NCBI GenBank assembly: GCA_963710755.1
Contig: CAVQBK010000013.1
Location: 96,001-160,000, forward strand
Direction: 5' to 3'
DNA: 64,000 bases
Source: an uncultured bacterium
GTDB taxonomy: Bacteria > Oederibacteriota > JAAXVQ01 > JAUVAV01
The notes beneath the pieces are model-generated. The model was given only the letters and a program-made list of their open reading frames with translations, searched no databases and was not told the DNA's origin. This document shows, piece by piece, positions 26,448-55,300 of this stretch (the first letter of the stretch is position 1; each line of letters begins with the position of its first letter). A program made the translations under genes and the position numbers.

Positions 26448-26454
26448 TTTAACC

Positions 26455-27441: not shown

Positions 27442-28708
27442 ATGGCAAACCCTCTCCCTTGGTTTGAAGCCAAGCGGCTTCGGCCGACCACATGGCGGCC
27501 TTTGAATTTAAATATGATTTTTGCGTGCTTACCAAACGGTCTTCGATAATGGACCAGTCATCAAAAGAAATCAAGCCGCTCGAATATTGGGCATTGGCAA
27601 TTTTTCCCCGTGCCAGTGCTGCTTGTAAATATTTATCCTGCACTTCATAAATACCCAGGGCGTCCTGAAGAGCGTTCCAATCCTGTTGCAGGGCTACCTG
27701 CACTGAAGTGCTGATATTTTGTAGGTCATTTTCCGCCTGACTCAGGCCTGCTTGAGCTCGGGCAATGGCCCCCATGCGGCTGCCGCCGCTAAAAAGCGGC
27801 AAAGAAAGGCTCAGCCCGGCGCTGGCATGTTTTTCCTCAGGAAACCAGTGATCATCGGAAAGCCCGGCGGAAAGACTGAGCGCCAGACTGGGATAAAGGG
27901 AGCCATACACAGACTTAAGCTGCCAGCGGGTGCCGGTCAGATCAGCCCCGGCGCCTTTCACCAAGGGGGTAAGGCTAGCCATGGCCTGAAAATCTGGTAT
28001 GGCTTCCGTTTTTTCCGGTTTCGTAAACTCCCCTTGGATTTGAAATTCTGTGGACGTCAGTCCCAATTGCCTGGCCAACGCCCGCTTGGCCAGCTCATTG
28101 GCCCGGTGCGCTTGTCGAACTTCAAACTGGGCCTGGGCCAAATCGGCTTGCGCCGTTAACAATGCCCCAATATGTTCGCGACCGGCGTCATAACGCAATT
28201 TCACCATACCCAGATTCTGTTCCCGCCGGCTGGCAATGTTTTCAGTGATGGTAATCAGCTCCATGCTCTTCAGCAACCCGATATAGGCCTGTCTTAAGTC
28301 GTAACGTACCTGGGCTGAAGTCTGGTTAAATTGACTGGTGGCTTTGGTCAACTGGGCCTGGGCCTGACCTACCGCGGCCGGGGTCTGCAGTCCGTCAAAG
28401 ATCGTCTGTCGGGCGGAAACAGAGGCGGAAAAATTGTTGGACTCCACGTTTTCCAAATCACCGCTTTTCTGTACAGAGGCATTTAAATCCAATTGTGGAT
28501 ACCAGTTGCTGTAGGCAATGGTTAAATTGGCCTTGGCTTGTTGCAGCCGGTTGTAGGCGGATTTCATGTCCCAATTGGTTTTCATGGCCTGTTGCACACA
28601 ATCGTCCCAGGATAAAATTTGCTGGCCATAAACTGGCAGGCTTAGAAGGGGGCCTGCCAGTAGGGTTGCGGCCAACAACAAAAAGGCGTGCTTTGCTTTC
28701 ATGGTCAA
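27434..28708 (-). CDS. TolC family protein
   Basis: Signal peptide and OEP repeats; overlaps macA. Confidence 0.85.
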   Translation of the reverse strand: MTMKAKHAFLLLAATLLAGPLLSLPVYGQQILSWDDCVQQAMKTNWDMKSAYNRLQQAKANLTIAYSNWYPQLDLNASVQKSGDLENVESNNFSASVSARQTIFDGLQTPAAVGQAQAQLTKATSQFNQTSAQVRYDLRQAYIGLLKSMELITITENIASRREQNLGMVKLRYDAGREHIGALLTAQADLAQAQFEVRQAHRANELAKRALARQLGLTSTEFQIQGEFTKPEKTEAIPDFQAMASLTPLVKGAGADLTGTRWQLKSVYGSLYPSLALSLSAGLSDDHWFPEEKHASAGLSLSLPLFSGGSRMGAIARAQAGLSQAENDLQNISTSVQVALQQDWNALQDALGIYEVQDKYLQAALARGKIANAQYSSGLISFDDWSIIEDRLVSTQKSYLNSKAAMWSAEAAWLQTKGEGLPYE

Positions 28709-37947: not shown

Positions 37948-39774
37948 CTAGGCTCCGGCCGAAGCCTTCCCCATGTCCGATTGTTCCTGCTGCAAGCCTC
38001 CATGTTTTTGGGCGAGGGTTTCAATTTCACGGCGGTAACGTTGATAGTCAGGGGATTGGGCAGGGGTGTAATTGAAATTTTTATACAAACCGGTAAGTCG
38101 TATGAAAAAGTCCCTGGCCTTCTCCTTACTTTCAAAGCTATATTCGCGGTCAAGGATGGTTTTTAATAAGGTGAAACTTTCTCTCTGCCGTTCCTGGCTC
38201 ACGGACACATCCACCTCATCAAAAGCATCCTGCTGCAAGTAAACCATATCCAGCAGCAGCGCTTTTTGATAGACCACATAATCTTCAATACTGATCCCCT
38301 CTTCCCCGCTGACTTGCATCATTTGATTAATCCCATCGCCCTGATGAATCAGGTCCTGAAAACGATGGACATCCTCCATCCAGGTCGGCCCATAGTGGTC
38401 GTCGTACCACTTGTCCAGCTGGTCAAAATAGCGTGACCAGGAGATCAACGGGTCAATGGCCGGATAATAACGGCGATAAGCCCGATCCGCACTGAGGCCC
38501 AGAAAAGTTTTCACCGTAGCCAGCGTGGCCTGCGTGACCGGTTCATCAAAATTGCCTCCGGCCGGGGAAACGGTGCCGATCATGGTCAGACTTCCGTTGC
38601 GGTTGTCCTCGTTCTCGATAATGCCGGCCCGCTCGTAGATGCTTTTAATGTTGGAATCCAAGTAAGCGGGAAAAGCCTCTTCGCCCGGAATTTCTTCCAT
38701 GCGCCCCGAGGTCTCCCGCAGAGCCTGGGCCCACCGGCTCGTGGAATCGGCAATCAACAACACGTGATACCCCATTTGCCGATAATATTCGCCCAGCGTC
38801 ATGCCCGTATAGATCGAAGATTCCCGCGCGGCCACAGGCATGGCGGAGGTGTTGCAGATAATGATGGTTCGGTCCATGAGCGAACCACCGGTTTTGGGAT
38901 CTTTCATCTGGGGATATTCGGTGATGGTCTCCACCACTTCGCCGGCCCGCTCACCGCAGGCCACAATAATCACAATGTCCACGGAGGCGTGACGGGCAAT
39001 CAGACCTTGGAGCACGGTTTTACCTGCTCCAAAAGGCCCGGGAATGCAGGCGGTACCGCCGCGGGCGATGGGATAAAACGTATCAATAATACGCTGGGTG
39101 GTGGTCATGGGTTCAGAAGGATAAAGCCGTCGGGCCAGCCGTTTATCCAGCAATGCTTCCGACAGGGGCTTGCGCACCGGCCAGCGCTGGACCATGGTCA
39201 AAGCGAGTTCTTGTTGGTCCTCGGTTTTGAGCCAGGCTATAGGCGTCTCAATAGTGTAGGCACCGTGTAAAATACGGATGACCTGGGCCTGGCCGGTCAA
39301 ATCATTGGACGCCATAATATAATGTCGAAAGGGACCTTCAGGCACATACCCGATGACCTGACCTGCCCTGACCTGATCACCGGCCTGAACCACGGGGGTA
39401 AAGGTCCAGGTTTTTTCATGATCCAAGGGCAGCACCCTTACCCCGCGGGGCAGAAAAAAACCATGGTCGCGGGCAATGTCAGCCAGCGGTTTCTGCAGGC
39501 CGTCATAGACCTGTCCCAGCAGGCCCGGTCCCAGGGAGACCGACAGCAACTCACTGGTCAGTTCCACCCGGTCACCAACTTTGATCCCGCCCGTATCCTC
39601 AAACACCTGCATATCCGCGTGTCGCCCTTCCACCCGCAGCACCTCTGCCATCAGCCGTTCCTGACCAACCAGAATATAGCCCACCTCGTTTTTCTTGATG
39701 GGACCATTCTCTGCTTCAATGGTAACCAGATTCTCGCGTACGGCAATTACCCGCGCTCGGGTAGCCTCGGACAT
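37948..39774 (-). CDS. atpA: V/A-type ATP synthase subunit A (NtpA)
   Basis: GPFGAGKT, CGERAGE, PVAARE, DSTSRWAQA, PGEEAFPAYL. Confidence 0.95.
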   Translation of the reverse strand: MSEATRARVIAVRENLVTIEAENGPIKKNEVGYILVGQERLMAEVLRVEGRHADMQVFEDTGGIKVGDRVELTSELLSVSLGPGLLGQVYDGLQKPLADIARDHGFFLPRGVRVLPLDHEKTWTFTPVVQAGDQVRAGQVIGYVPEGPFRHYIMASNDLTGQAQVIRILHGAYTIETPIAWLKTEDQQELALTMVQRWPVRKPLSEALLDKRLARRLYPSEPMTTTQRIIDTFYPIARGGTACIPGPFGAGKTVLQGLIARHASVDIVIIVACGERAGEVVETITEYPQMKDPKTGGSLMDRTIIICNTSAMPVAARESSIYTGMTLGEYYRQMGYHVLLIADSTSRWAQALRETSGRMEEIPGEEAFPAYLDSNIKSIYERAGIIENEDNRNGSLTMIGTVSPAGGNFDEPVTQATLATVKTFLGLSADRAYRRYYPAIDPLISWSRYFDQLDKWYDDHYGPTWMEDVHRFQDLIHQGDGINQMMQVSGEEGISIEDYVVYQKALLLDMVYLQQDAFDEVDVSVSQERQRESFTLLKTILDREYSFESKEKARDFFIRLTGLYKNFNYTPAQSPDYQRYRREIETLAQKHGGLQQEQSDMGKASAGA

Positions 39775-39787
39775 TCTAATGCCCGGC

Positions 39788-40465
39788 TTAGACGAATGCT
39801 TGTCCACCGATGGCCTCCTCAACCAGCAATTTAAACCGCTCCTGCGCAGGCCCAGCCTGATAAGAGAGCCAGCGCTCTATAATATCCCACTTAAACAAAT
39901 AAGCCAGCAACGCCTGTAAGTTAAACGTGTTGAACGTCACCAGTTGCGACACATTTTCCCAAATGAGCGACAACAGCACATGCTCCAACTCATAAGTTTC
40001 CGCCCTGTCCATCCTCTGCTTCAGGTCCTTGACCGCGGGAAAAAGATGATCCAGGTGAAAATAGGGTTCCTGCCAGTGACGCGCAATGATTCCCACCCAT
40101 TCCCCCACGCCCCAGAGTTCTTCCGGTCTAGGCGCCGGTCTGCCCAGATAGCGGCGGCGCAACGCGGTCATCAGGGTACGGAGATTGACCCGGAAAGTTA
40201 CCATAGCACGCAAGGCCGGGTTGGTCACCGCGGCCATCATGTTGGCATAGTGGTGAATCATGTCCCGATCCGTCCGTTCCAGAGGATGCCGTTGCCAGCG
40301 CAGAAAATTATGGGTCACCTCTACAATCACCTGGTCTTTAGGATCAAGCATGCGCAGTCTTTCCCTCAGCCTCAAGGCGCTGATCGGCAGCCGTTCCACC
40401 TGATCAAAAGGCGGCAGAAAAGGCAGGCTGGCCATGAGGGTGTAGAACGGATTAACCGGACTCAT
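39788..40465 (-). CDS. DUF2764 family V-ATPase-associated protein (subunit C-like)
   Basis: YTLMASLP N-terminus, ALLAY..KW.I..RW; lies between subunits E and A. Confidence 0.75.
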   Translation of the reverse strand: MSPVNPFYTLMASLPFLPPFDQVERLPISALRLRERLRMLDPKDQVIVEVTHNFLRWQRHPLERTDRDMIHHYANMMAAVTNPALRAMVTFRVNLRTLMTALRRRYLGRPAPRPEELWGVGEWVGIIARHWQEPYFHLDHLFPAVKDLKQRMDRAETYELEHVLLSLIWENVSQLVTFNTFNLQALLAYLFKWDIIERWLSYQAGPAQERFKLLVEEAIGGQAFV

Positions 40466-40471
40466 GACCGG

Positions 40472-41143
40472 CTATTCCACACCCTGGATAACCGCGCGAA
40501 AGCGCGGCGCCAGATGCTTTAACAGCAGCTCGGAAATAGCTTTTTGGGTCAGGTCGATTTCCAAATCTTCGCCCCGCAATTGCACACGCAAGCCTACTTG
40601 ATCGTCACCACCGGGGTGCAGATCCACCCCTTCGCGCAACATCTCACTGGACACGGCCAGCAGAAAATGGCGCAGCCGCTGTTTGCCTTTGCCTGACAGT
40701 TCCGTACCGGCATAATCTTCAAACAGCTCATTGGCGATCTGAATGTCCATGCCCTGGTCGGCGGGAATGGACGCCGAGCTTTTCAGGGCAATGGCCAGAA
40801 CCATCTGTTTTAAAAAATCATGGTCCTGCAGTTCCATGGAAACCAGCCGTCTCACATGAGCGGCAAACACGGACTTGAGATCTGTTTCCAGCCTGATCTC
40901 CACGTCCCGGACTGCCAGACGCAGGGCTTCATCAGCAGATCGGCGCTCCGCCTCAATTTCAGCCTTGGCTTTAGCTCGCAGGGCTTCCGCTTCTTCCCTG
41001 GCCTTAAAGAGCAGTTGTGAAGCCTGCTGCTGGGCCTGCTCCACAATCTTGGAGGCTTCGTCGCGACCCGATTGAATGCCCTCATCTTTCAGGCGGTTGA
41101 TCAGTTCCTGTACACCTGAGGAGCCTTTGCTTTCCTGAGCCAT
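40472..41143 (-). CDS. atpE: V/A-type ATP synthase subunit E
   Basis: VQELINRLKDEGI coiled-coil N-terminus; operon context. Confidence 0.85.
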   Translation of the reverse strand: MAQESKGSSGVQELINRLKDEGIQSGRDEASKIVEQAQQQASQLLFKAREEAEALRAKAKAEIEAERRSADEALRLAVRDVEIRLETDLKSVFAAHVRRLVSMELQDHDFLKQMVLAIALKSSASIPADQGMDIQIANELFEDYAGTELSGKGKQRLRHFLLAVSSEMLREGVDLHPGGDDQVGLRVQLRGEDLEIDLTQKAISELLLKHLAPRFRAVIQGVE

Positions 41144-41146
41144 AGT

Positions 41147-41608
41147 TTACTTTCCTCCCGGCAGTAATCCGGCCAAGACCAGCGCGAAAACAAAAGTGAA
41201 TACTGAGAACCCTTCCACCAGGGCGGCCGGTGCCAGTGATATACCAAACACTTCGGGTTTGCTTTTGGAGGTTTGAATGGCCGAGGCGCAGGTATAGCCC
41301 TGGTAAATGGCGCTGAACAGCAGGGCCACGCCCGTGAGCAGACCGATGGCAAAAATACCGGGCGCATTGGCCAGGTTGAGCGAACCGCTCAGAGAGAGCA
41401 TGATCACGATGCCGTAAATGGTCTGCGAAGAAGGCATGGCCGAAGCACCGATAAAGCGGCCATGGCCGCTTTCGGTCTCTAAAATAGCACCGCAAGCCGC
41501 CTGGCCGGCGCGGGCGCACCCAATCACACTGCCCACGGCCGCCAGGGCCATGGGAGAAAATACCCCCATCCAGCCCATCAATAAAAAAACCTTATCGCTC
41601 ACGTTCAT
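41147..41608 (-). CDS. atpK: V/A-type ATP synthase subunit K (4-TM proteolipid)
   Basis: PSSQTIYG, YQG, conserved Glu in LVEG. Confidence 0.9.
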   Translation of the reverse strand: MNVSDKVFLLMGWMGVFSPMALAAVGSVIGCARAGQAACGAILETESGHGRFIGASAMPSSQTIYGIVIMLSLSGSLNLANAPGIFAIGLLTGVALLFSAIYQGYTCASAIQTSKSKPEVFGISLAPAALVEGFSVFTFVFALVLAGLLPGGK

Positions 41609-41611
41609 TGT

Positions 41612-43387
41612 TTATTGCTCCTTTCGGGAAAATGCGCGGAAGGATGTGCCCTCCTCAGGAATACTCCAACGGAAAAATTCAATAAAATTGAGGCGCAGCC
41701 CATGGATCACACCGCTGGCCATGGCCAGCATAAAATTAATGCCATGACCGAAAAGCAAAATAAAAAACGCCGCCACCAATCCCAATCCCGGGAGGCTTTG
41801 GTTGACCTGGCCGGCAAGATGATTAAAGGTCGTGGCCAGAGAAGCGCTTGCCAGTCCCAGGGCAAACAAGCGCAGGTAACTCATTATGTCACCAAAAGCG
41901 CCCGACACCTGGGCCAATTGGCCCAGACCACCAAACAATCGCTTGGCCAAACTACCCCTGGTGACGCTAAACCCGGCGACCAGCATCGCGCCGAGGCTCA
42001 GCAGCACCATGCTCTGCGTCTGAACCGAAGAGACTTGCAGGTGCAGCACACCCGAGAACCACCACCAGCCTGCGCCCATAAGCATGAGGCACCATCCCAA
42101 AGAGGACAGTGCCCTGAGCTCGCGCCGCCAATGCCAGGTATTAGCGGTATTAGCCACCAGCAGATGAACCAGCCCAATGGCCAGGGAAAGATTCATCATT
42201 ACCTTAAAGTCATTAATATCCAGCAGCTTTAATTGCCCCAGCCAGGCATGACCCTGCAGGCTGACGCCGAAGTAACTGCCCACCATCACGCCCCATAGCA
42301 AAGAAGCCGCCACCAGGCTAAGCAGCAGCCTGCGAAAACGTATTTGCCAGGCCGTAGCATTTAATCTTTTCCACAGCAAGGCCAAAGCCGCGGCCATCAC
42401 CAGGGCATAACCGGCATCGGAGATAATAATGGCATAAAAAACGGCAAAGGAAAAAAAGACCACCACCGAAGGATCCCAGAGCCAATAGCTGGGCATGGTG
42501 TAAAATTGAACCAAATCCTGACCCCCGGCCACAGCCGGCTGATTGTGCAGCAAGGTGGGCGGCGTTTCGTCAGGGCCGGGGTCTGCCATCTCCAAGGCCA
42601 GGCCATGGTCTTGGCTGTACGTTTTCAACCGGCCGGCCTTATGCTTGGGTGCCCAGGCTTGCAACGCAAAAACATCGGGCGTATCCAATGTTTGCCGGGC
42701 AGCCTCCAGTCTGCCGGCCTGATCCTCCAGACGGCCCAGATTCTTGGCGAACAAAGCGCACCAGCGGGTCAGACTGACCCGTTCATTTTCCAGCTCATCC
42801 ATTTCCAGCTCCACCTCTTCCAGGCGCTCCGCCAGACGGCTGAGACTGTCATGCCCCAGATGAGTACGGTGAACCGGCATGTCCTTGGGTTCGTGCTTGG
42901 CCATCACCACCACATAATTGAAACGATTATCCTGGGCCACCAGTTCCCAGGTCAGGTTTTTTTTATCCAGTATAGGCAGTTGGCGGTGAGTCAGAATATA
43001 AAACCAGAAGCGCCAATGCCCCATGTTCTGGGCCGGCTCCATTTTAAAATCGCCCCAGGGCTTGAGCTCTTCTATTTTATTTTTCAGGGCATCCTGATCA
43101 TCTTCTAGAATTTGTATCCGCTCTTTGATTTCCAGCACCCGGGCCTGGACAGCTTCAATATCGAAGGCTTGCGGATCCTTGAGTTGTTTGCGCCGGCGAG
43201 GACAGCTCAGCAGGTATTGCAACGCCTCTCTGGCTTGGGCCGTAGGTCCGCTGTCAGAACTTTTTTCCCCGCTGGCGGTGAGCGGAATGATGTGTAAAAT
43301 GCCCATAGCTTGCAGATCGAGCAGAACCTGGGCTTTTTCCTGCAGGGGCCCATAAAAGGTGATTTTGGCCAGCGCCTGAATACTCAT
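41612..43387 (-). CDS. atpI: V/A-type ATP synthase subunit I
   Basis: PPTLL, DAGY, SYLRLFALGL, HGLRLNFIEFF. Confidence 0.93.
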   Translation of the reverse strand: MSIQALAKITFYGPLQEKAQVLLDLQAMGILHIIPLTASGEKSSDSGPTAQAREALQYLLSCPRRRKQLKDPQAFDIEAVQARVLEIKERIQILEDDQDALKNKIEELKPWGDFKMEPAQNMGHWRFWFYILTHRQLPILDKKNLTWELVAQDNRFNYVVVMAKHEPKDMPVHRTHLGHDSLSRLAERLEEVELEMDELENERVSLTRWCALFAKNLGRLEDQAGRLEAARQTLDTPDVFALQAWAPKHKAGRLKTYSQDHGLALEMADPGPDETPPTLLHNQPAVAGGQDLVQFYTMPSYWLWDPSVVVFFSFAVFYAIIISDAGYALVMAAALALLWKRLNATAWQIRFRRLLLSLVAASLLWGVMVGSYFGVSLQGHAWLGQLKLLDINDFKVMMNLSLAIGLVHLLVANTANTWHWRRELRALSSLGWCLMLMGAGWWWFSGVLHLQVSSVQTQSMVLLSLGAMLVAGFSVTRGSLAKRLFGGLGQLAQVSGAFGDIMSYLRLFALGLASASLATTFNHLAGQVNQSLPGLGLVAAFFILLFGHGINFMLAMASGVIHGLRLNFIEFFRWSIPEEGTSFRAFSRKEQ

Positions 43388-43402
43388 AACCCGCTCCCCC
43401 TA

Positions 43403-44017
43403 CTATGATGACCAAGACGGCCGTGATCGTTCATGCATTTGCTTGGCAATTTTGGACCGCACCACCGCAGCCCGTTCCGCATCACCCAGAAAAATCCGGA
43501 TACGGGCAATAGTGGTTTCTGTCTGCGGAATCAACACTTTCTTGAACAGATTTACCCGCTGAGTAATGCGCTTGACAGCCTGGGCCAGTAAATTTACCCG
43601 TCGGGCCATGACCTGCAAACGGGCCCGAAGGTCCAGCATGATTTTCATTTCCTTGACCAGGCGGTCCACCCAATGCGGCTTGGCCAGCATGGAATAGGGA
43701 TAAACAAAAAAGGCAACCTCTTCCAGTTTGGGCAACACCACGCCCACCACATTTTCCTGGCCGAGCCGCACGTCTTTAATCTTTACCAGACCGGCCACGG
43801 CGATGGCCTTATTGGCCAGCATAGGCAATTGAGCGCCCACCAAAGCCAGAGCCTCTCGCTCCTGCTGATGCAGGGTGCCGAGCGCTCTTTCCGCCTTTCT
43901 TTGTTCCCCCAGCAGCTGCATGCGCTTGAGCTCCAGCGAAGGCAGGAGCCGCTGATACAGTTTTAATTTAACCCGCTCTTTTTGCAGGCTGCTTTTATTC
44001 ATCGAAATTCTGCTCAT
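43403..44017 (-). CDS. atpD: V/A-type ATP synthase subunit D
   Basis: LPSLELKR, TQRVNLFKKVLIP. Confidence 0.92.
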   Translation of the reverse strand: MSRISMNKSSLQKERVKLKLYQRLLPSLELKRMQLLGEQRKAERALGTLHQQEREALALVGAQLPMLANKAIAVAGLVKIKDVRLGQENVVGVVLPKLEEVAFFVYPYSMLAKPHWVDRLVKEMKIMLDLRARLQVMARRVNLLAQAVKRITQRVNLFKKVLIPQTETTIARIRIFLGDAERAAVVRSKIAKQMHERSRPSWSS

Positions 44018-44062
44018 GGTTTATCCTTATGGTCCATGCAAGTTGTATAACTCCATCTCACG

Positions 44063-44089
44063 GCGGGGTTCAACCTGTTGAACCCCTGC
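44063..44089. other. Intra-operon hairpin between subunits B and D
   Basis: ggggttcaac-ct-gttgaacccc. Confidence 0.5.
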
Positions 44090-44146
44090 AATGAGCGCTT
44101 CACCCCTGTCTATGTCCGCAGTGTATGTTTATGAGTTGTCTTTTTT

Positions 44147-45511
44147 TTATTTCGGCGATACGGCCTGGTCTTCGGCCTGCTGTGCCTGTGCTTTATCGTT
44201 TCCCGGGTAATATTTATCGATTAAGCTCTGCTTCATCAGCAATTCTTCCGGCTGAAAACACTCGGCCAGGGTCTCCCAGCACCGGTCCAGGGCTTGGAGT
44301 ACGGGCATAGCCACTTCGATGGCCATGAAGCGCTCGCGAAACAGTCGGCCAAACTTCAGAAGTTTCTGATCATAATCGGAAAGTTCAAACGCCATGGCCT
44401 GCTTGCGCTGGGTTTCCATAGCCTCTGAATAAAAGCGAATCATGGTATTCATGATCTGGCCGTGGTCTTCCCTGGTGGCTTTGCCCACCACATGCTGTTT
44501 GAGGCGCGACAGGCTGCCAAAGGGGTCGATCATCTTTTGGTAAAGATAAAGCTGGCCTTCCGTGATGTAACCGGTGTTGTCCGGCACGGGATGGGTTACG
44601 TCATTGCCGGGCATGGTGGTCACGGTCAGAATAGTGACCGAGCCGGCACCTTTGTAGTCGCAGGCTTTTTCATAGCGCTTGGCCAGTTGGGTGTAGAGGT
44701 CGCCCAGATAACCCCTGGTGGCGGGAATGCGCTCCATGGCAATACCGATCTCCTTCATGGCGTCGGCATAAGCGGTCATGTCGGTCATGAGCACCAGCAC
44801 CCTTTTATGCTGGTTAACGGCAAAGTGTTCAGCCACGGCCAGGGCCAGGTCAGGCACCTGCAGGCGCTCCACGATGGGGTCGGAAGCCAGGTTGACGTAC
44901 ATCACAGTGCGATGAAACACGCCGTGGTCTTCAAAAGCTTTGCGGAAAAAATAATAATCGTCAAAAATCAAGCCTAACCCGGCAAACACCACCACATCGG
45001 CATCAGCCTGAAAGCCGATGCGCGCCAGCAGTTGGTTGTAAGGTTCACCGGCCACGGAAAAAATGGGTATTTTCTGGCTCTCCACCAGGGAATTGAACAG
45101 GTCGATCATGGGCACTTCGGTCTGAATCATGTTGGAAGGCATAACCCGCATCATGGGGTTGACCGTGGGCCCCATGACATTGATGGTGGGGTCCGTGGAC
45201 AGGTCGGGGCCGTCATCCAGAATGTCGCCGGACCCTTTGAAAATGCGGCCCAAAATGTTGTCGGAACAGGTAACTTTGAGAGGATGGCCTAGAAAGCGGA
45301 CATGGGCGTCCGTGGACAGGCCCTTGCTGCCGCTGAAGACTTGCAGCCGTACCAAAGGACCGTTGAGTTCCACCACCTTGGCCAGGGACTGCTCACGTGC
45401 GCCAAACTCCACCACCGCCAAATCGCCGAAGGCAATATCATCAGCCTTGACGGTGATGGTGTCCCCGATGATTTCAAGGATTTGCGTATGCCGCCGCAGT
45501 TCTTCAAACAT
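44147..45511 (-). CDS. atpB: V/A-type ATP synthase subunit B
   Basis: SQKIPIFS, TDMTAYA, RGYLGDLY, THPVPDNTGYITEGQ; GGGAG before ATG 45511. Confidence 0.95.
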   Translation of the reverse strand: MFEELRRHTQILEIIGDTITVKADDIAFGDLAVVEFGAREQSLAKVVELNGPLVRLQVFSGSKGLSTDAHVRFLGHPLKVTCSDNILGRIFKGSGDILDDGPDLSTDPTINVMGPTVNPMMRVMPSNMIQTEVPMIDLFNSLVESQKIPIFSVAGEPYNQLLARIGFQADADVVVFAGLGLIFDDYYFFRKAFEDHGVFHRTVMYVNLASDPIVERLQVPDLALAVAEHFAVNQHKRVLVLMTDMTAYADAMKEIGIAMERIPATRGYLGDLYTQLAKRYEKACDYKGAGSVTILTVTTMPGNDVTHPVPDNTGYITEGQLYLYQKMIDPFGSLSRLKQHVVGKATREDHGQIMNTMIRFYSEAMETQRKQAMAFELSDYDQKLLKFGRLFRERFMAIEVAMPVLQALDRCWETLAECFQPEELLMKQSLIDKYYPGNDKAQAQQAEDQAVSPK

Positions 45512-45673
45512 GCGCTTGCTCTCCCAACCCGGTGTTTTTGACAGGCGTCGATGGCATGGCCTGCCTGTGATTTGAAGTGCTGTTTCGAAGTGCCGCGTCT
45601 TGACTGAAGCGTCTTTAATTATGCAATGAAAGCCGGAGGCATGCAAGGGCAATGATCGACCTTAAAAGCGGAC

Positions 45674-46309
45674 CTAGCCCAGCCACCCTGGGAACAACTC
45701 GGTCAGACCATTGGCCATAAATTGCACGGCTGCCGCGGACAGCAGCAACCCCATCAGGCGCGTTGAGATTTTAAGGCCATTGGCCCCCAGAAATTTACTG
45801 ACCGGCCTGGCCAGACTGAGGATAAGACCGGTCAGAAGGCCGATGAGCAGACTGATGCCAAGCAGCAGCATATAATGATGCATGCCGCTATGACGATGAG
45901 CAAAGAGAATCATGGAACTGATGGCGCCAGGACCGCTTAGCAGGGGTATGGCCAGAGGCACAAAAATATAGCCATCGTCCTTTGGATTGGTTTCAGCCAA
46001 TTCAGCGCGGTCGAGCTGAAAGCGATGGTCAGCCAGCATCATTTTAATGCCGATCAGGAGAAGTAAAATACCCCCGGCCACACGAAAAGAGGCAATCTGA
46101 ATGCCAAAGGCTTCCAGCAATTTCTCACCGGCAAGCGCAGACAAGGCCAGTACGACAAACACCGTGGCCGCAGCCAGCCAAGCCGCTCGTTGCTTACCTT
46201 TGAGGGCACCTTCCCCTACCAGAGAAAGCAAAACCGGTATGCCGCCAATGGGATCGACAATGGCCAGCAAGGTAATGAACATGTTAACGTACTCGTGGAT
46301 GTTTTTCAT
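45674..46309 (-). CDS. MarC family membrane protein
   Basis: DPIG, FRVAGG, PLAIPLLSGPGAI, RLMGLLL. Confidence 0.93.
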   Translation of the reverse strand: MKNIHEYVNMFITLLAIVDPIGGIPVLLSLVGEGALKGKQRAAWLAAATVFVVLALSALAGEKLLEAFGIQIASFRVAGGILLLLIGIKMMLADHRFQLDRAELAETNPKDDGYIFVPLAIPLLSGPGAISSMILFAHRHSGMHHYMLLLGISLLIGLLTGLILSLARPVSKFLGANGLKISTRLMGLLLSAAAVQFMANGLTELFPGWLG

Positions 46310-46321
46310 GACCTTTAATCC

Positions 46322-49300
46322 TCATGCGGCTTGAAACGGGCCGCGCAGACGTCGCCGGGGATGACCCGGTATCGGCGGCCTCGCGGGCAAGATTATGGAT
46401 CTAATTTTTTCCAAAAGCAAGATCAAAGGTGTAAAGAACCTTGTCTTGTTCATGTTCGCCGTGGTCAGGCTGTGGTTGATCCAATTCTTCATCAGCTCGA
46501 TTAACCAAGTTAACCCAAGACTGCTTATCATCACGGCTGCCGCCAAACCAGGTCCTTGCCAGTGGCCATTCATTACCGCCAGAGCCAGATGTCCGGCAGC
46601 CCCCACAGCCAGCAGCAGCGTTAGTCCGCTGAAGGTCACCATACCCTGCATGGAAGACGGTCCTTTGAGGATGGCCTTCACCCACGACGGGATACCTACA
46701 TCCTTCTCACTGGGATTCAGGAAACGAAGAATCCAATCCATATCATCGGGTCCCAACCATTCTGCCTCACAAAGGGGTTTAAAATAATCGTTTTGCAATA
46801 ATTGGCGCAGGTCCTGGTTATGGTTTAAATACTGGGCTTTTCCGGCCCGGCCCATGTCCGCTATCACCACCGGCAGGATGCCGGCCAAGGCTGTCTTTTT
46901 GGTATCATGGGTGCTGCGCCAAACCACTTTGGCCAAATGATCACCCAGGGTTCTGACCAGAGACAGGTCTTGGCCCTGTATTAAATAGGTTTCTTCAAGC
47001 ACCGTTGTACGCAGCCGCTCCATTTCATGGAGCTGGTCCGTCACCACTTCCTCCAGACTTTTAGGGTGCGCCACCACCGAATTTCCGGCAAGCGCTTGAA
47101 AAGAAACCCGGTCCAGCTGCTCTGCAGATAGTAATGTGTGATTCCCTTGCATCACCGTAAAATATTTAAAATATCGGTTAAGCAATGCTTTGATGGCCGG
47201 GAACATGACCCGATCTATCCGCAAGGTTGCATAAGTCTTGTCGGTCATGATTTTGGTGCGGAGGAAATTCATTGCCGTAAAGGTAAACCCCGCGGGCACA
47301 ACGTCTCCCTTTGACAGAGGTTGGAGCACCATCTGACCGAGAGCCTTATCCAAAGTCAATACCATGCGCCCTACAAAGGCCCCGCGGTTTTTATCTGATA
47401 ATCGTTTCCACCTTACCGGTTTGCTCTTCATAAGGTAAAAGTCATAAATAGATCCCCTCATTTTGTTGACGACGAAATGCTGCCATGGGTTAAACACGTT
47501 GGCCAACCCATTCAAATCGGGATCAAAATCCTGCAGCGCATAGTGCTTCTCCAAATAATGGCGAATGGTGCGTTCCAGTGCCTTCCTATCCGCGGACTTG
47601 GCAGCAAACCTTGCCAGCACTAGTGGACGCATGGCTTCCTCTACACCGGGAAGACCGGCAAGTGCTTTAATAGCCTCGCGATTATTCAGGCCCAGTTGCT
47701 GCCATAAAGGGCCTTTTTGCGGATCCAGCAAGCTTTCCAGCGACATTTGCTGGAGTTCTAATTTTTGCTCCCCATTGATCAGGCTGGTCGTAGGGAGAAT
47801 GACGTTGAGCAGGATGTTGGCCAGGGCATGTTCCAGAAAGGGTTTCACGGTCTCGGGCTTTTGAGCGCGCTGTTCCAAGCCCTGCACGATGGCGGTCAGG
47901 ATCTGGTGTTGTTTTTCTTGTTCCACGCCATAGTATTGCAAGGTTAAAATAAATTGCCGTAGCCGCCCTGCTTCGTGAGCCATGACGCCTGGGGGAGAAA
48001 ACCATAGGGCCAGAGCCTGCTTCAAGTCATCGTCCTGCCCCGAAGCCAAGGACCAGATCCATTGATCCAGTGAAGTAAGAACCGGCGGCCCTTCCAAGGA
48101 AGAGGGATGGGCCCGGATTTGTTCCAACAACAGGCCATGGCAGGCACTCAAGATTTGCAAGGATTTTAAAGGTTGTTTCTTCGTCTCAGCCATCACCAGC
48201 CGGTACAGTTGGTCGGACAGCTCCATCAGTCCTTTTCCTTGAGGGGCTGTTAAACCCTGACGTGTGTCGAGGAGCAACGCCAATTTCCAAGCTAAGAGGT
48301 GATAATCCGCCAGCCTACGTACACCTAGCCGTTCCTGGTTTAATTGAGCCAGACGGGCTGCGGCTTCAGGGTCCAAGAGATCGGGTTCCTTGGCCAGAGT
48401 CTCCACCATCAGGCCGACCCAGCGTAAAGGAGTGGGCCTCCCTTCGGCTCTCACCTTTTGAAAAAAGAGATCACCAGGGGCAGCCATTCTCTGTAACATT
48501 TTGAGGTTTTGGTCCAATTCATGATTCTGGTCTTCCGGTGTATACGCCAGCCAGGCGGTTAAAAGTTTATAAAACAACAGGTTGTAGTCATCACCAAACC
48601 AATTTTCCAGCCGGCTGCGCATTTGTATAAAATCATCGAGCGATTCCAAAGGCCTGCGCTGAGCCTGCCGCACCAGATAATGGTTAAAAAAGGGTAAGTC
48701 CTTTGGGTTAATGGACCAGGGGACGGTTCCGCGCTTGAAAGGACGATTGAGCCAGGCTTCAGTCACTTCTGCAAGCAGTTGGGGCTGGTCTGAAAGGGTC
48801 AGGCCAAAATACCGGTGCAGGCTGCCTATGTAAACCTGCTGGCTCGGTGCGGCAGCCACCAGCAGGGATTTGAGGAGAGTCGATTTATCTGCTCGGGGCA
48901 GTTGCAGGTTAAAGTATTGCTGGAACCAGGGCCCAAAAAGACGGGGGCAACGGTCTATCATCCAGTAAGCCAGTCGGCGTTTGATTCGCCAGTCAGCTTG
49001 CTGCAGTTTTTTCTGGAAAGATTGCCAGCGGCGGTCATGCATACTGACATCCTGTAGGTTCAGAGTTTGCACATCCTTTTTCCATCGGGGCACCCAGTCG
49101 GGCTGAGGTTCAGATCCGCTGCTGGTCATCATACCTAATAAGCCCGGTATTAAGGTTGTAAAGTCATGGTCCATCACTGCCTTGATCGTATAGCCCAGCA
49201 CCACGGCAGCAGCTCCGGTCATCAGCAAGCGTCGGGATCCCCAGGCTTTCACAGCCAAGGCCTTCACCCCTTTCTTCGCAGTTTTCCCCAGAGGGCGCCA

Positions 49301-50845
49301 TGAAAAAGCGCGTTCCATCGCAGGGCGCACCCCTTTCCAGGCGCGCTGAACTTCTTCAGCCGAAGCCTGATAAATCCAAATCTTAAGGTGGCCCAGCCTG
49401 AGGACCATCTCCGGTTTGAGCACTGACGGCAAGTCCTTAACCGGATTGGCTTGAAAAACCACGAGCCGCCTTTGACCGTCAGGTAAAGTCAGCCGTGCCA
49501 TGCGCCAAAGCTCGCTTTGATTCTGACCGGCCATGGTTAAGAGATGCACCAAAAATCGAATCATCTCTTGAAAGCGTTCTTGTTCCCGGGTGAGCGTATG
49601 GCTTCCAGGCATGCTGGTTTTAGGCCCTTGATAAAAGCGCGTAAGCAAAGACAAACTTGCAGGATGCTTGTCCAGATAGGATGCCAGAGCCGTGGCTCTT
49701 TGGGTCAGAAGACCAAAATAAGGATTGGCTGCCTCGGGACGGGTTAGACTGGGGATGATGGAGATGGTGGAAAAACCATGTGCCTGCAAAGCTTGTAGAA
49801 AGTCTTGCGTATGAAATCCTCCGGTCACCACGACGGCCACGTTTTGTTTTTCTTCAGCCATGGTCCGCGCCCAATGGTCTGCAAAAACACGGCTCCGTTG
49901 GTGGGCGGTTGCATAAAAGGTCCTGGCCACCTTAAGTTTGTTATCCAAAAAGACGGGATCATTATTAACCAGCCAGGAAGTCTGCACTGCCCGGGGAAGG
50001 AGATGCAAGCAAGCCTTGATATTGAACCAATGCGGATGAGCCAGGAAGGTCGCCACGTCCTGTGGCGTGGCTGAAATAGTGAGCACTCTTTCCAGTACGT
50101 CCAAGCGTTGCTGCCATGGCTTTAAAACTGAAGACTTGGCATTACTGCCACCAGGAGCAAATTGATTTTGAAGCGCTTCTTTTAAATCCTGGAAGTAACC
50201 CAAGGTTTCGGTGGTTAACAAGGTACGTGCTTGCTGAAGATTGGCTTCATACAAAGCTTTATCTTCAAACCCTTTCACCATCAGAGGCGTGGGATTCAAA
50301 GTTGCACCATATTCAGCGCCTGTGATCAAGCCCTGCTGAAGCAAATAATCTGCGATTGATTGACGAATAACAGGATTGACCAGCCCGCGCAAAGGGGAGA
50401 GATCCAGATAATCCCAAGCGCCTTCCACGCCCACCAGCCTGACGCCTTGATGTTTGGCCAAATAACGGACCAGCCCGGCAATATGACGCTGTACCTCCTC
50501 CTGGCCATGTAGATCCTGCACCTGAATGATCAATGGCCCGGTGCCAAGGTGCCGGCTAACCACGGTGCCCAAGGCTTTGGGTACAGTGACAACCTTAGGA
50601 TCCAGGCTTGGCCGCGCCTTAGGAATAAAAGCCCAGCTCACTTCAGGACTAAGCCAGCTGAGCAACATTATCATGATAAGGCCAGCCCTTAGCTTCCTGT
50701 GGTGCCTGAACAGTGTCAAGGCAACGGGTTTGACCTTTCTGTGATGGGACAACCATTTCATAAGATGCAAATCGACACCCCAAAAGTCAAGTCGCCTGGG
50801 ACATGTCCTGCCGGTAATTGGCCGGGCAAGGACAGTTGTACCCAA
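46322..50845 (-). CDS. Large (about 1480-1507 aa) hypothetical exported/membrane protein with an N-terminal QDLH/VGVEGA domain
   Basis: Long uninterrupted ORF, probable start near 50761. Signal-like hydrophobic segment, IQVQDLHG..VQRHI, VGVEGA, ITGAEY, GFED..LY..NL, VVTGGFHT; internal and C-terminal TM segments. Confidence 0.8.
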   Translation of the reverse strand: MGTTVLARPITGRTCPRRLDFWGVDLHLMKWLSHHRKVKPVALTLFRHHRKLRAGLIMIMLLSWLSPEVSWAFIPKARPSLDPKVVTVPKALGTVVSRHLGTGPLIIQVQDLHGQEEVQRHIAGLVRYLAKHQGVRLVGVEGAWDYLDLSPLRGLVNPVIRQSIADYLLQQGLITGAEYGATLNPTPLMVKGFEDKALYEANLQQARTLLTTETLGYFQDLKEALQNQFAPGGSNAKSSVLKPWQQRLDVLERVLTISATPQDVATFLAHPHWFNIKACLHLLPRAVQTSWLVNNDPVFLDNKLKVARTFYATAHQRSRVFADHWARTMAEEKQNVAVVVTGGFHTQDFLQALQAHGFSTISIIPSLTRPEAANPYFGLLTQRATALASYLDKHPASLSLLTRFYQGPKTSMPGSHTLTREQERFQEMIRFLVHLLTMAGQNQSELWRMARLTLPDGQRRLVVFQANPVKDLPSVLKPEMVLRLGHLKIWIYQASAEEVQRAWKGVRPAMERAFSWRPLGKTAKKGVKALAVKAWGSRRLLMTGAAAVVLGYTIKAVMDHDFTTLIPGLLGMMTSSGSEPQPDWVPRWKKDVQTLNLQDVSMHDRRWQSFQKKLQQADWRIKRRLAYWMIDRCPRLFGPWFQQYFNLQLPRADKSTLLKSLLVAAAPSQQVYIGSLHRYFGLTLSDQPQLLAEVTEAWLNRPFKRGTVPWSINPKDLPFFNHYLVRQAQRRPLESLDDFIQMRSRLENWFGDDYNLLFYKLLTAWLAYTPEDQNHELDQNLKMLQRMAAPGDLFFQKVRAEGRPTPLRWVGLMVETLAKEPDLLDPEAAARLAQLNQERLGVRRLADYHLLAWKLALLLDTRQGLTAPQGKGLMELSDQLYRLVMAETKKQPLKSLQILSACHGLLLEQIRAHPSSLEGPPVLTSLDQWIWSLASGQDDDLKQALALWFSPPGVMAHEAGRLRQFILTLQYYGVEQEKQHQILTAIVQGLEQRAQKPETVKPFLEHALANILLNVILPTTSLINGEQKLELQQMSLESLLDPQKGPLWQQLGLNNREAIKALAGLPGVEEAMRPLVLARFAAKSADRKALERTIRHYLEKHYALQDFDPDLNGLANVFNPWQHFVVNKMRGSIYDFYLMKSKPVRWKRLSDKNRGAFVGRMVLTLDKALGQMVLQPLSKGDVVPAGFTFTAMNFLRTKIMTDKTYATLRIDRVMFPAIKALLNRYFKYFTVMQGNHTLLSAEQLDRVSFQALAGNSVVAHPKSLEEVVTDQLHEMERLRTTVLEETYLIQGQDLSLVRTLGDHLAKVVWRSTHDTKKTALAGILPVVIADMGRAGKAQYLNHNQDLRQLLQNDYFKPLCEAEWLGPDDMDWILRFLNPSEKDVGIPSWVKAILKGPSSMQGMVTFSGLTLLLAVGAAGHLALAVMNGHWQGPGLAAAVMISSLGLTWLIELMKNWINHSLTTANMNKTRFFTPLILLLEKIRSIILPARPPIPGHPRRRLRGPFQAA

Positions 50846-52461: not shown

Positions 52462-52493
52462 TTATTGGTATTGAAATGATTGGGAGTTTAACT

Positions 52494-53057
52494 ATGGCCG
52501 ATAAAGCCAAAGCCATTGCACCTGCGGTAAATCCTAAATTAACAGCCACCAGCACCAATAAAAATGTACGGGTATTGCAGGCGCTGCGAAGAATAGTGCG
52601 GGCCATTGAATTACACTCGAAAAAACTGGCTCATCAGTATCATATCACAGCTCCTCAGTTGGTCTGTTTAATCAAGCTCAGAGAAGACGGCCCTTTGACC
52701 ATTACAGCCCTTTCCCGGCTGGTTCATCTCAGTCCCAGCACGTTGGTTGGTATTATGGACCGGTTGGAAGAAAAGGCGCTGGTACAGCGCACACGCAGCA
52801 GCCATGACCGCCGGGTGGTGCATATCTCCATTACCGCCAAAGGCATCCTCCTGGCCGAACAAGCGCCTTCTCCCCTGCAAGACAAACTGGCTCAGGCCTT
52901 GGATCTGCTGCCGGAACTGGAACATTTGTCTATTACCCTGGCTTTGGAAAAAATTGTGGACTTGATGGAAGCCGGCCATATCGAAGGCGAACCGGTATTA
53001 AAAACCGGTCCAGTCCATCAACTCAGCGATGATCCTGACCACGCCGCAGAGCAATAA
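52494..53057 (+). CDS. MarR family regulator, CosR/EctR-like
   Basis: LRRIVRAIELHSKKL...TAPQL, DRR, APSPLQ resemble the CosR/EctR subfamily; directly upstream of osmolyte genes. Confidence 0.85.
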   Translation: MADKAKAIAPAVNPKLTATSTNKNVRVLQALRRIVRAIELHSKKLAHQYHITAPQLVCLIKLREDGPLTITALSRLVHLSPSTLVGIMDRLEEKALVQRTRSSHDRRVVHISITAKGILLAEQAPSPLQDKLAQALDLLPELEHLSITLALEKIVDLMEAGHIEGEPVLKTGPVHQLSDDPDHAAEQ

Positions 53058-53100
53058 CCCTTTTCAGACCACCTACTTCCAAAAACTTCAGAAATGAGTC

Positions 53101-54003
53101 ATGATGAACATTATTGATGGAAAGTTACATTTATCCGAACATCAAAGCGTTGATATCGTTTTGGGCGATTACAATCAAAGAATTAAGCTCTATGGTCTTA
53201 CCGGCACGGACCTCAACCAGGAGCGGCTGGAATGGCTGTGCCGCCAACAAAGCACCCTGGGTCATCCTTACGGCAAAATTATCGTTTATGCCCTGCCCGG
53301 CGGGGAAATGGACTGGCTGGCTATGGGTTTTGTAAAAGAAGGGGTAATTGGGGGTTTTTTTCGTAATCAGACCGACGCGGTTATCAGGTCTTATTTTATC
53401 GACCCCGACCGGCGCAGTGATGAGTTGCAAGCCAAACACGACAAATATGTGCAAATCGCCAGGGATAAAGCTTCTATTACGCCCGCCTGTCCAAAGGGCT
53501 TTACCTGCCATTTGGCCCAGCCCGAAGATGCTCCGGCAATTTCAGCGCTTCTAAAGCGGACTTTCAAGGATTACCCCTCCTCCCTGGAAGCGGATCACCT
53601 GCAAAAAGCAATGGCCAACCGGCACAACCACTTCCGTCTCATCCGCAACCACCGGCAACAGCTGGTGGCGGCCATGTCCGCTGAAATCGACCACGAACGA
53701 AGCAGCGCAGAAATGACGGATTGCGCTACGGACCCTGACTACCGCGGCTTGGGTCTGATGGCCTGCCTGCTTGGCCGTCTTGAGCAAGACTTACATAAAC
53801 AATTTGGCATCATCAATTTCTATACCTTGGCCCGGGCGGACATGCTCAGCATCAATTGCGTGTTCAGCAAACTGGACTACCATTACACGGGACGGCTGGT
53901 CAACAACTGCCGCATGCCCAATGGATGGGAGTCCATGAATATCTGGTGCAAAAGGTTATCACCAAAGGAGAACCATGGATCATCGCAGCCAGCGTCAAAA
54001 TGA
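53101..54003 (+). CDS. ablB: Beta-lysine N-acetyltransferase
   Basis: [52 protein letters not shown]. Confidence 0.88.
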
Positions 54004-55300
54004 AATATCCAGTCAAATCAATGAGCATTCAGCCGCTACCAATGCCTCCCATTGGTATGACTGGCAGTGGCAATTGCGCCATTGCGTCAGAAATATGGAT
54101 CAATTTGAACACTTATTGGGGGTAACCTTTCCTGAAGAAAAGATGCGTCAACTAAAAGAAGCGGCCGCCAAATTTCCCATTTCCGTGACCCCTTACTATC
54201 TGTCTTTAATTGATACCACCGATCTGGAGAACGACCCGATCTTCAAGCAATCTTGTCCTTCTTCCCTGGAATTACAGACCATGCATCATGATTTGGCTGA
54301 TCCGCTTTCAGAGGACAAAGACAGCCCGGTCCCAGGCATCACCCACCGCTATCCGGACCGGGTGTTGTTTTTGGTTTCCAATACGTGCACCATGTATTGC
54401 CGGCATTGCACCCGCAAACGCAAGGTGGGTGAAAAAGACTCCATCCCCTCAAAAACAGCGGTCAAAAAAGGCCTGGAGTATATCCGGTCCACGCCGGCGG
54501 TACGCGATGTGCTACTCTCCGGCGGCGATCCCTTTTTGCTCCCCGATGATTATCTGGATTGGATTTTAACGGAATTACGCAAAATCAAACATGTGGAAAT
54601 TATCCGTATCGGCACCAGGACCCCGGTGGTACTTCCCTATCGCATCACCGACAATCTGGTGAACATGCTTAAACGCCATCACCCTCTGTGGATCAACACC
54701 CATTTTAACCATCCCCGGGAAATCACCAAATCATCGAGCATAGCCCTGGCCAAATTGGCTGATGCCGGCATCCCTCTAGGCAACCAGTCGGTGCTGCTGG
54801 CCGGGGTTAATGACTGCCCCAGAATCATGAAGCGGTTGATGCAAAAGCTGGTCCAGAACCGGGTGCGTCCCTATTACATGTATCAATGTGATCTTTCGGA
54901 AGGGCTGAATCATTTCCGTACGCCTGTGGGCAAAGGCATCGAAATTTTGGAGAGTCTTATTGGTCATACCAGCGGGTTGTGCGTACCGACGTATGTTATT
55001 GACGCACCCGGTGGCGGCGGCAAGATTCCCATCATGCCTCAGTATCTGATTTCCTGGTCCACCAATAAAGTGATCCTGCGTAATTATGAAGGCGTGATCA
55101 CCACTTATCGCGAGCCCGATTCGTACGAGCCCTTTTTCTGCAACCGCAATTGCGACCACTGCCAGTTACAGCTGAAGTTGGACCCCAAAGAGGATCCCGA
55201 AACCGTGGGGATCGAAAAACTGCTGGCCGATTACGATGAAACCATTGCCCTCGTTCCCAGCAACACGAGCCGTCTGAAACGGCGGCGCCGGAAGAGTTGA
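53975..55300 (+). CDS. ablA: Lysine 2,3-aminomutase
   Basis: [38 protein letters not shown]; overlaps ablB. Confidence 0.93.

Follow-up and report, generated by a model that had tools for sequence, protein, structure and literature searches.

The question raised by this locus is what kind of protein combines a signal-like N-terminus and a conserved-looking first domain with a long remainder that family searches do not recognise. The open reading frame (ORF) concerned occupies nt 46322–50845, on the reverse strand, of a 64,000 nt stretch of DNA from an uncultured bacterium of the Oederibacteriota (contig CAVQBK010000013.1, positions 96,001–160,000 of the forward strand; hereafter the window). 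The original prediction, made from the letters alone, was of a modular exported protein with a constant N-terminal domain and variable cargo. In the current study the gene is found to be a divergent, small member of a large family of 'head-body-tail' proteins, which share a head at the N-terminus and, in most cases, a short C-terminal tail, while most of the bodies between them are unrelated to each other. The family is real, strongly constrained and uncatalogued.

The window's own genome (G000; 3,441,520 bases in 13 contigs, 98% complete) was searched, among its ORFs of at least 200 aa, with residues 29–430 of the protein (phmmer) and with a profile of the family (hmmsearch). Both give the identical set of 31 family ORFs, and there are no borderline matches up to an E value of 10. 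They range from 619 to 9465 aa, most being 1,000–4,000 aa long, and together they make up 80,562 aa, or 7.0% of the 3.44 Mb genome. In a six-frame search of the genome with the same protein there are dozens of matches, all lying within its first ~450 residues and each heading a very long frame. With 31 copies the gene is not single-copy, and its body is unmatched in 15 related genomes, including one of the same genus; the predicted combination of a constant N-terminal domain with a variable remainder is borne out by the 31 paralogs, most of whose bodies are left unmatched to each other by BLAST. Two of the 31 copies lie on short contigs, one being cut by the contig end and the other only 619 aa in length. 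On contigs C11 (8.8 kb) and C12 (9.3 kb), the heads are nearly identical to that of C4:146591-150532 and have the same small ORFs upstream, so that they represent either a very recent duplication or strain variants left unmerged by the assembler.

The layout of the gene is as follows, with residues counted from the first codon of the frame.

46322–50845, reverse strand: whole ORF, 1507 codons from TTG plus stop, open throughout
50630–50761, reverse strand: Sec-type signal peptide, residues 29–72, from alignment columns and hydropathy, with a predicted cut after S-W-A and before F
49652–50584, reverse strand: predicted TIKI/erythromycin-esterase-fold head, residues ~88–398, from the alignment, an AlphaFold model and fold matches
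49229–49651, reverse strand: basic helical neck leading from the head to the first membrane segment, residues 399–539, net charge ~+15, helices of low confidence
49172–49228, reverse strand: first clear hydrophobic (membrane) segment after the head, residues 540–558, hydropathy 1.69
46628–49171, reverse strand: orphan body, residues 559–1406, negative in family and homologue searches, predicted all-helical at low confidence
46490–46627, reverse strand: membrane hairpin, residues 1407–1425 and 1434–1452, hydropathy 1.95 and 1.81
46325–46357, reverse strand: family tail RRRLRGPFQAA-COOH, a basic cluster followed by small residues, from the tail pattern and alignment

The frame of ~1500 aa that had been proposed is real, all 1507 codons being open. 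Judged by the paralog alignment, translation is likelier to begin at the ATG of residue 29 (nt 50761) than at the TTG, and the spacer upstream of this ATG is AT-rich and promoter-like; a gene-caller record of the same gene starts at M58 and gives 1450 aa. Apart from the segments listed above, a hydropathy scan finds the N-terminal hydrophobic core at residues 56–74 and a weaker stretch at residues 1470–1488. Two pairs of transmembrane segments had been proposed, of which the second is retained as the hairpin, while the first reduces to one clear segment (540–558) followed by a weakly hydrophobic stretch. The basic tail is present as described. Searches of the whole protein against Pfam, NCBIfam and the PDB sequences (the latter with phmmer) give no significant match, and the best sequence-model matches (SHOCT_2, a hemophore model and a Rossmann-like monodehydroascorbate reductase stretch) are at chance level and were rejected. 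Within the family the protein is of the smallest type and divergent, with the lowest score of the 31 ORFs against the family profile.

The head measures ~320–450 residues in the family. In an alignment of the N-termini of the 31 paralogs (alignment A1), mean column identity is 33%, and the invariant or nearly invariant positions, numbered from M29, are D83 (nearly invariant) and H85 in QDLHC, followed by Q91; E113-G114 in EGA; G144 and G148 in LTGAEY; G164 in GxE; F282-Y283 and R289 in FY..AD.RS; G314-G315 and H317 in TGGFH; and P337 and Y348 in NPYF. All the motifs originally picked out by eye (QDLH, VGVEGA, GAEY, GFED..LY, R...F and VVTGGFH) fall on such columns. The candidate catalytic residues are D111, H113, E141, R317 and H345 in ORF numbering, corresponding to D83, H85, E113, R289 and H317 from M29. 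A helical insert of 54–68 residues is found in 29 of the 31 paralogs and is missing from the present protein and one other copy. For a wider comparison, the protein was aligned to the family profile with the 150 best cluster representatives (see below) and with 11 distant relatives, the heads of which are 29–38% identical to its own. The Asp, first His, Glu and Arg are kept in all 151 close sequences and the second His in 150 (with one gap); in the distant relatives, both His, the Glu and the Arg are present in 11/11 and the Asp in 10/11. Conservation as near to complete as this points to the head being an active enzyme.

The arrangement of these residues resembles that of a known superfamily. 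In the accessible text of PMC6254334, the 2His/2Glu site of the TIKI superfamily is represented in RRSP by E3900, H3902, E3930 and H4030, Bcr135 has a His85-Glu113 pair, and a water-activating His-Glu mechanism common to the Ere enzymes is proposed. In the head family the Glu stands exactly 28 residues after the first His of D-x-H, as in RRSP and Bcr135, while the first acidic residue is Asp, against Glu in RRSP. That numbering from M29 yields 85 and 113, the same as in Bcr135, is a coincidence. In the model, strands at positions 77–82, 109–112 and 308–313 lead respectively into DLH, EGA and the second His, so the conserved His-Glu pair and the second His lie at strand ends, in the site pattern of the TIKI superfamily.

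The fold was assessed using an AlphaFold model of the head built on A1, that is, on the 31 paralogs only. Its mean predicted local distance difference test (pLDDT) score is 78, and most of the core (residues ~60–350) exceeds 88. The five best PDB matches found by Foldseek are 3b55, 2rad chains A and B (Bcr135-type), and the EreC entries 6xcs and 6xcq, with probabilities of 0.80–0.99. A search independent of Foldseek, covering 48,161 chains, gives as its top five EreC (6xcq, Z 9.5, root-mean-square deviation 4.0 over 167 residues), 2qgm (Z 8.4), 2rad (Z 8.2), ChaN (Z 8.1) and HopBA1 (Z 7.8); further comparisons give Z 9.1 for 6xcs, 7.9 for 3b55 and 6.5 for the MARTX RRSP catalytic region (6a7h, 3879–4058). 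All of these proteins (Ere, Bcr, ChaN, HopBA1, RRSP) are listed as TIKI superfamily in the accessible text of PMC6254334. The modelled head has the alpha/beta arrangement of that fold, with a parallel beta-sheet core flanked by helices, and matches solved members at moderate Z. The strength of the assignment comes from both methods ranking one superfamily at the top and not from the size of Z. A profile search of the PDB with A1 gives only chance-level matches. At fold level, and on the basis of a model, the head is assigned to the TIKI superfamily as a new family, separate from those of Ere, TraB and ChaN. The EreA/ChaN-like fold and the H/E/R/GxxH pattern that had been suggested are upheld by the fold searches and by residue conservation.

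The best structural matches to the head are provided by the Ere family (EreA/B/C, Bcr135/136, PF05139). In both, the first strand ends at a His and the next one at a Glu, 28 residues further on (His85/Glu113 in Bcr135; PMC6254334, accessible text); both also have a second His following the Gly-rich end of a strand, and a lid of helices between their two halves. The head differs in having no PF05139 match and only ~14% identity in the structural alignments, and in standing behind a signal peptide and continuing into huge, membrane-bound bodies; Ere enzymes, by contrast, occur as free-standing proteins. The Ere enzymes are also cytoplasmic, and nothing in the head family suggests macrolide substrates. 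The TraB/PrgY/GumN proteins and the metazoan TIKI proteins (PF01963) belong to the same superfamily as the matched folds (PMC6254334, accessible text). PF01963 is unmatched in G000, by title no TraB/TIKI entry occurs among the fold matches listed, and these proteins are of a few hundred residues, in contrast to the giants of the head family. In layout, PrgY and TIKI nevertheless offer the nearest analogy (outside head plus membrane anchor), as they are extracytoplasmic, membrane-tethered domains acting on peptide or protein N-termini. Among the other fold matches, RRSP is a metal-independent endopeptidase of the same fold within a very large multi-domain protein, according to the accessible text of PMC6254334. 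ChaN (PF04187) is a small haem-binding protein, and HopBA1 and RRSP are injected effector modules, internal or terminal in their proteins, whereas in the family described here the domain always leads.

Each of the 31 copies begins with a basic stretch that is followed by a hydrophobic core and the sequence P-x-x-[S/T/G/A]-[W/F]-[A/S/T], then [F/L]-[E/D/N]. In the alignment columns, position -1 is small (A/S/T) in 31/31 copies and position -3 in 27/31, and Pro occupies position -6 in 31/31. The signal-like N-terminus of the present protein is of this kind, having a basic n-region, a hydrophobic core, the invariant Pro and small residues at -1 and -3. The pattern fits signal peptidase I, the family N-termini have the features of Sec signal peptides, and cleavage is predicted; judged from the alignment, the junction appears more fixed than an ordinary signal peptide requires. 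We infer that the head is exported. Beyond the head, 29 of the 31 copies have at least one hydrophobic segment, which in 20 of them lies at residues 590–720. Elsewhere in the window (nt 24468–28708, reverse strand) there is a tripartite efflux set, consisting of a MacB-type ATP-binding cassette transporter, an HlyD-family adaptor and an outer-membrane efflux protein. This set implies a diderm envelope, which bears on the location of an exported head.

The bodies are highly diverse. An all-against-all BLAST of the regions after residue 500 yields 40 matches in total; 11 of the 31 bodies match no other, and in most of the remainder the match covers between a tenth and a third of the body. Pfam domains are found at E ≤1e-4 in 15 of the 31 proteins, the other 16 having no Pfam match. 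They include PPDK_N (five proteins), PEP-utilizers (two), cytidylate kinase, HD, NUDIX, TreT/GT1, GNAT, low-molecular-weight phosphatase, transglutaminase core, GH77, NTP_transferase, GGDEF and alpha-amylase, and two further matches (glucoamylase and M50) are under their cut-offs. The enzymes are of a housekeeping type, and as they need nucleotides or phosphoenolpyruvate (PEP), the bodies are placed on the cytoplasmic side. The body of the present protein has no Pfam match. Its sole similarity to another body is between residues ~1114–1328 and the paralog C4:54396-55031 (E 1e-5, 23% identity), and a word-limited search of 5.8 billion clusters with residues 600–1507 finds no homologue. The long region that had been called unrecognisable is thus so in Pfam, NCBIfam, PDB sequence and homologue searches alike. 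A single-sequence AlphaFold model of the body is all-helical with a pLDDT of 39.6, and the body is probably best described as a lineage-specific helical region.

Comparison with the related genomes shows how differently members of the family are preserved. Whereas the body of the present protein lacks any match there and its head has no same-genus match better than 36–37% identity, a paralog of 4062 aa matches a single same-genus frame of 4084 aa over its first 2990 residues at 64–95% identity. Segments separated in G000 by ~470 and ~455 residues adjoin each other in that frame, a mosaic that could reflect module gain or loss, or internal repeats. A single-copy gene with full-length collinear orthologs, which would have spoken against the prediction, is not what is seen, the present body having no counterpart and the larger paralog having an ortholog that is mosaic.

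The family C-terminus is conserved and not variable, and the constant tail is a feature absent from the original prediction. The ending [SAGQTNM][SA][AV]-COOH occurs in 22 of the 31 family ORFs, compared with 21 of the 2147 other ORFs of at least 200 aa. When at least four Lys/Arg just upstream are also demanded, 18 family ORFs and 10 others are left, and three of these 10 sit directly downstream of headed ORFs that lack a tail (G000:C3:409620-423666, C13:366376-383030 and C3:91754-98182). Where a tail-less headed ORF adjoins a tail ORF, the two are probably pieces of one gene that a frameshift, a stop or an assembly error has interrupted. Before the tail, a loose region of ~80 residues is common to many copies; the present protein has the membrane hairpin there instead. 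A fourth of the 10 non-family ORFs with the tail is an ORF of 8125 aa (G000:C4:21455-45832) in which the profile detects no head at E values up to 10 and the first 700 residues have no NCBIfam match. Its front end may be of another kind, or may have diverged strongly.

G000 also has a second class of large exported proteins (~1,500–3,200 aa), which end in a type IX secretion system (T9SS) type A sorting domain (G000:C6:140255-149266, C4:163554-173018 and C3:55099-61002). TIGR04183 is above its cut-off in all three of the large proteins tested, which serve as a positive control for its absence from the present protein. The genome accordingly has two separate groups of big proteins, the headed family being different from the type IX group.

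Beyond this genome the head is abundant. Among 1.84 billion protein-cluster representatives, the family profile matches 9,773 at E ≤0.001, 8,455 at 1e-10 and 6,275 at 1e-30. In the best 150 representatives, which are proteins of 388–7768 aa, the match begins at residues 1–42 in 149 and at residue 101 in one. Three of the 11 distant relatives are named, and these are assigned to Omnitrophota (including Candidatus Tantalella) or Elusimicrobiota; the nearest ESM Atlas clusters to the head are likewise of Elusimicrobiota and Omnitrophota proteins. A likeness to the N-termini of giant proteins in these two phyla had been suggested, and it is confirmed by both comparisons. In reference genomes, those of the best 80 loci that have a taxon name belong to FCPU426, Firestonebacteria or Goldiibacteriota. 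In the window's phylum, 99 genomes were compared and matches occur in 16, namely G000, 10/10 of its family, 4/4 of a sister family in the same order, and a sixteenth genome (86% complete, with 4% contamination) in which the match is weak (E 2e-6); the head profile has no match in the other 83. Matching genomes of the phylum have 7–42 matches each. Within the phylum the head is confined to one order.

The reading of these data that is favoured here, and which is given an even chance of being right, is that the head is an exported, membrane-tethered hydrolase serving the maturation or sorting of its own protein, with the tail as a second signal and the bodies on the cytoplasmic side. The signal peptide would be cut after the conserved W-A, leaving the head outside the cytoplasmic membrane and tethered by the next membrane segment. 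By analogy with the His-Glu water activation proposed for Ere/TIKI enzymes, the head would be a hydrolase (peptidase or esterase). It would act in cis or at its own insertion site, helping to mature, trim, anchor or sort the protein that carries it, and would not work on a common free substrate. Cis action is preferred because 31 unrelated proteins each keep an intact, constrained head and no partner gene is found; no conserved neighbour or companion exists, any one neighbour family being common to at most five of the 31 loci. The bodies, often with enzymes using ATP, nucleoside triphosphates (NTP) or PEP, would be on the cytoplasmic side or woven through the membrane, and the tail would be a further signal common to the family, acting in sorting or in turnover. 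The processing or export function originally put forward for the head is plausible.

A number of observations weigh against this reading. Cleavage, cis action and the role of the tail are all inferred, and the equivalence of the catalytic residues with those of TIKI proteins rests on spacing and strand position, not on superposition. The Foldseek TM-scores are low (0.21–0.25), with a single match at E ≤0.001, and Z values of 8–9.5 are only modestly above those of unmatched models, for which a best Z of 7–8 is common. Pfam gives no match to the present head and no consistent one among the 31 heads at E values up to 10. A six-frame search of G000 with PF01963 and PF05139 finds nothing at E up to 10, and with PF04187 only one weak match (12.5 bits, E 0.12, against a cut-off of 27.7 bits), on the GGFH region of one paralog; hhalign of A1 against eight TraB proteins of the same phylum, a narrow set of low diversity, gives a probability of 0.2. 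ChaN is itself a case of the same fold binding a ligand without catalysis. With regard to processing, a junction tag of the form R-S-E-x-R occurs 0 times in the 80,562 family residues, and there is no recurrent junction motif, with no 5-mer common to at least five bodies and no 4-mer or gapped motif enriched more than ~8-fold. Finally, the present protein has seven Lys/Arg in the 20 residues before segment 540–558 and none after it, and under the positive-inside rule these flanking charges would put its neck in the cytoplasm. Among the paralogs as a whole, such charges are not biased consistently towards either orientation.

An extended form of the favoured reading, which is considered unlikely as a whole, would make the fixed junction (P-x-x-S-W-A followed, after the predicted cut, by F-E/D), the head and the tail a self-contained biogenesis system for very large multi-enzyme membrane proteins. 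The head would trim or ligate its own chain, or open the envelope locally, and so license the insertion of any body placed between head and tail. If true, this would explain how several uncultured phyla keep inventing and swapping giant proteins.

Also unlikely, though with more than one observation in its favour, is the delivery of polymorphic effectors or toxins, the head being a trafficking or autoprocessing module and the variable bodies acting on prey or host cells, much as the original prediction had supposed in proposing host or prey interaction, and in line with an idea of predation in the Omnitrophota literature. A constant head with unrelated bodies is what such a system would show, as is the rapid turnover seen here (the present body is absent from the 15 relatives searched and the same-genus head match is at 36–37%) and the mosaic same-genus ortholog of another paralog. 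Nucleotide-using enzymes would suit the cytoplasm of a target cell equally well, TIKI-fold domains occur in the injected effectors HopBA1 and MARTX RRSP, and attachment and cell-wall attack have been proposed for giant proteins (10.1101/2023.11.21.568195, accessible text). The loci themselves speak differently, as they have no immunity-like or other recurrent neighbour gene (at most 5/31) and no toxin family appears among the Pfam matches. The many internal membrane segments argue for retention in the membrane of the producer, and the C-terminal tip is conserved, whereas in polymorphic toxins the tip is the variable toxin. The type IX sorting-domain proteins of G000, moreover, are a separate set, the present protein having no TIGR04183 match in NCBIfam. 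The host- or prey-interaction part of the prediction is therefore not supported by the neighbours, the Pfam matches or the conserved C-terminus.

The order of parts proposed for these proteins, with a domain outside, a membrane segment and an enzyme inside, is also the usual layout of bacterial receptors, and some bodies have GGDEF, HD or phosphatase domains. With ChaN, a haem binder, among the best fold matches (Z 8.1), the exported head could be a ligand-binding sensor from which the membrane segment signals to cytoplasmic enzymes. This explanation is held to be quite improbable, as the near-total conservation of catalytic-type residues in distant relatives fits an enzyme better than 31 sensors, most bodies are non-signalling (glucan enzymes, kinases, NUDIX, transferases) or lack any domain that can be recognised, and bodies that reach 9,465 aa and contain dozens of membrane segments do not resemble receptors. 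A non-catalytic scaffold or docking head, assembling the members into one envelope structure through the shared head and tail as handles and using the conserved residues to bind a metal or cofactor for stability, has parallels in the structural, non-catalytic metals of EreB/Bcr136 and in PMT, a TIKI-fold protein without catalytic motif or activity (both PMC6254334, accessible text), and is very unlikely, since the head family, unlike PMT, keeps all the catalytic-type positions.

The head family is of wider interest because the giant proteins found in Omnitrophota, Elusimicrobiota and uncultured phyla close to them are an acknowledged puzzle. According to the accessible text of West-Roberts et al. 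2023 (bioRxiv 10.1101/2023.11.21.568195), their N-terminal regions are generally without identifiable domains except for C39 or S8 peptidases; attachment and cell-wall attack are the functions proposed, and PPDK_N, NUDIX and GGDEF occur in one class. The Omnitrophota giants, as far as the accessible texts of that preprint and of 10.64898/2026.06.07.730766 describe them, are likewise very long, with a signal peptide, membrane helices and bodies of the PPDK_N/NUDIX/GGDEF type. The G000 family differs in that its members are mostly 1,000–4,000 aa, against giants of at least 30,000 aa, and in that its nearest named relatives are FCPU426, Firestonebacteria and Goldiibacteriota. Erythromycin, TraB and ChaN are unmentioned in the accessible texts of the two preprints. 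A literature search on Tiki/erythromycin esterase together with Omnitrophota, Elusimicrobia or giant proteins found no description of the head, which the preprint supplements might nevertheless list. As far as could be searched, the head-body-tail design is not in print.

A head of what is predicted to be a known catalytic fold, leading ~10,000 protein clusters, provides a shared and testable handle on such proteins, and head and tail together allow a multitude of huge, unrelated ORFs to be seen as a single family built on a common logic. That family also flourishes in a lineage near FCPU426, Firestonebacteria and Goldiibacteriota, where it takes up 7% of a genome yet is restricted to one order of its phylum, and its members include conserved mosaic orthologs at one extreme and species-specific orphans, like the gene described here, at the other. 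The head is small enough to be expressed and assayed, which would be the first experimental entry into these proteins.

The remaining features of the window that lie near the giant gene, or that belong to the same family, are as follows.

37948–45652, reverse strand: V-type ATPase genes in the order B, D, I, K, a 223-aa unassigned ORF, a DUF2764 protein and A (catalytic subunit last)
45674–46309: MarC-family gene, between the V-type ATPase operon and the giant gene and 12 bases downstream of the latter
52476–55300, forward strand: MarR regulator, GNAT acetyltransferase and lysine-2,3-aminomutase-like radical S-adenosylmethionine enzyme, in a row
61631–64000, reverse strand: C-terminal part (last 789 codons) of a second family member, G000:C13:157631-164263 (2210 aa, HD domain), the head of which lies beyond the window end

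A functional tie of the giant gene to the downstream MarC and V-type ATPase genes was considered and dropped, as nothing suggests one. The GNAT and lysine-2,3-aminomutase-like genes in nt 52476–55300 are presumably the known pair for synthesis of the osmolyte N-epsilon-acetyl-beta-lysine.

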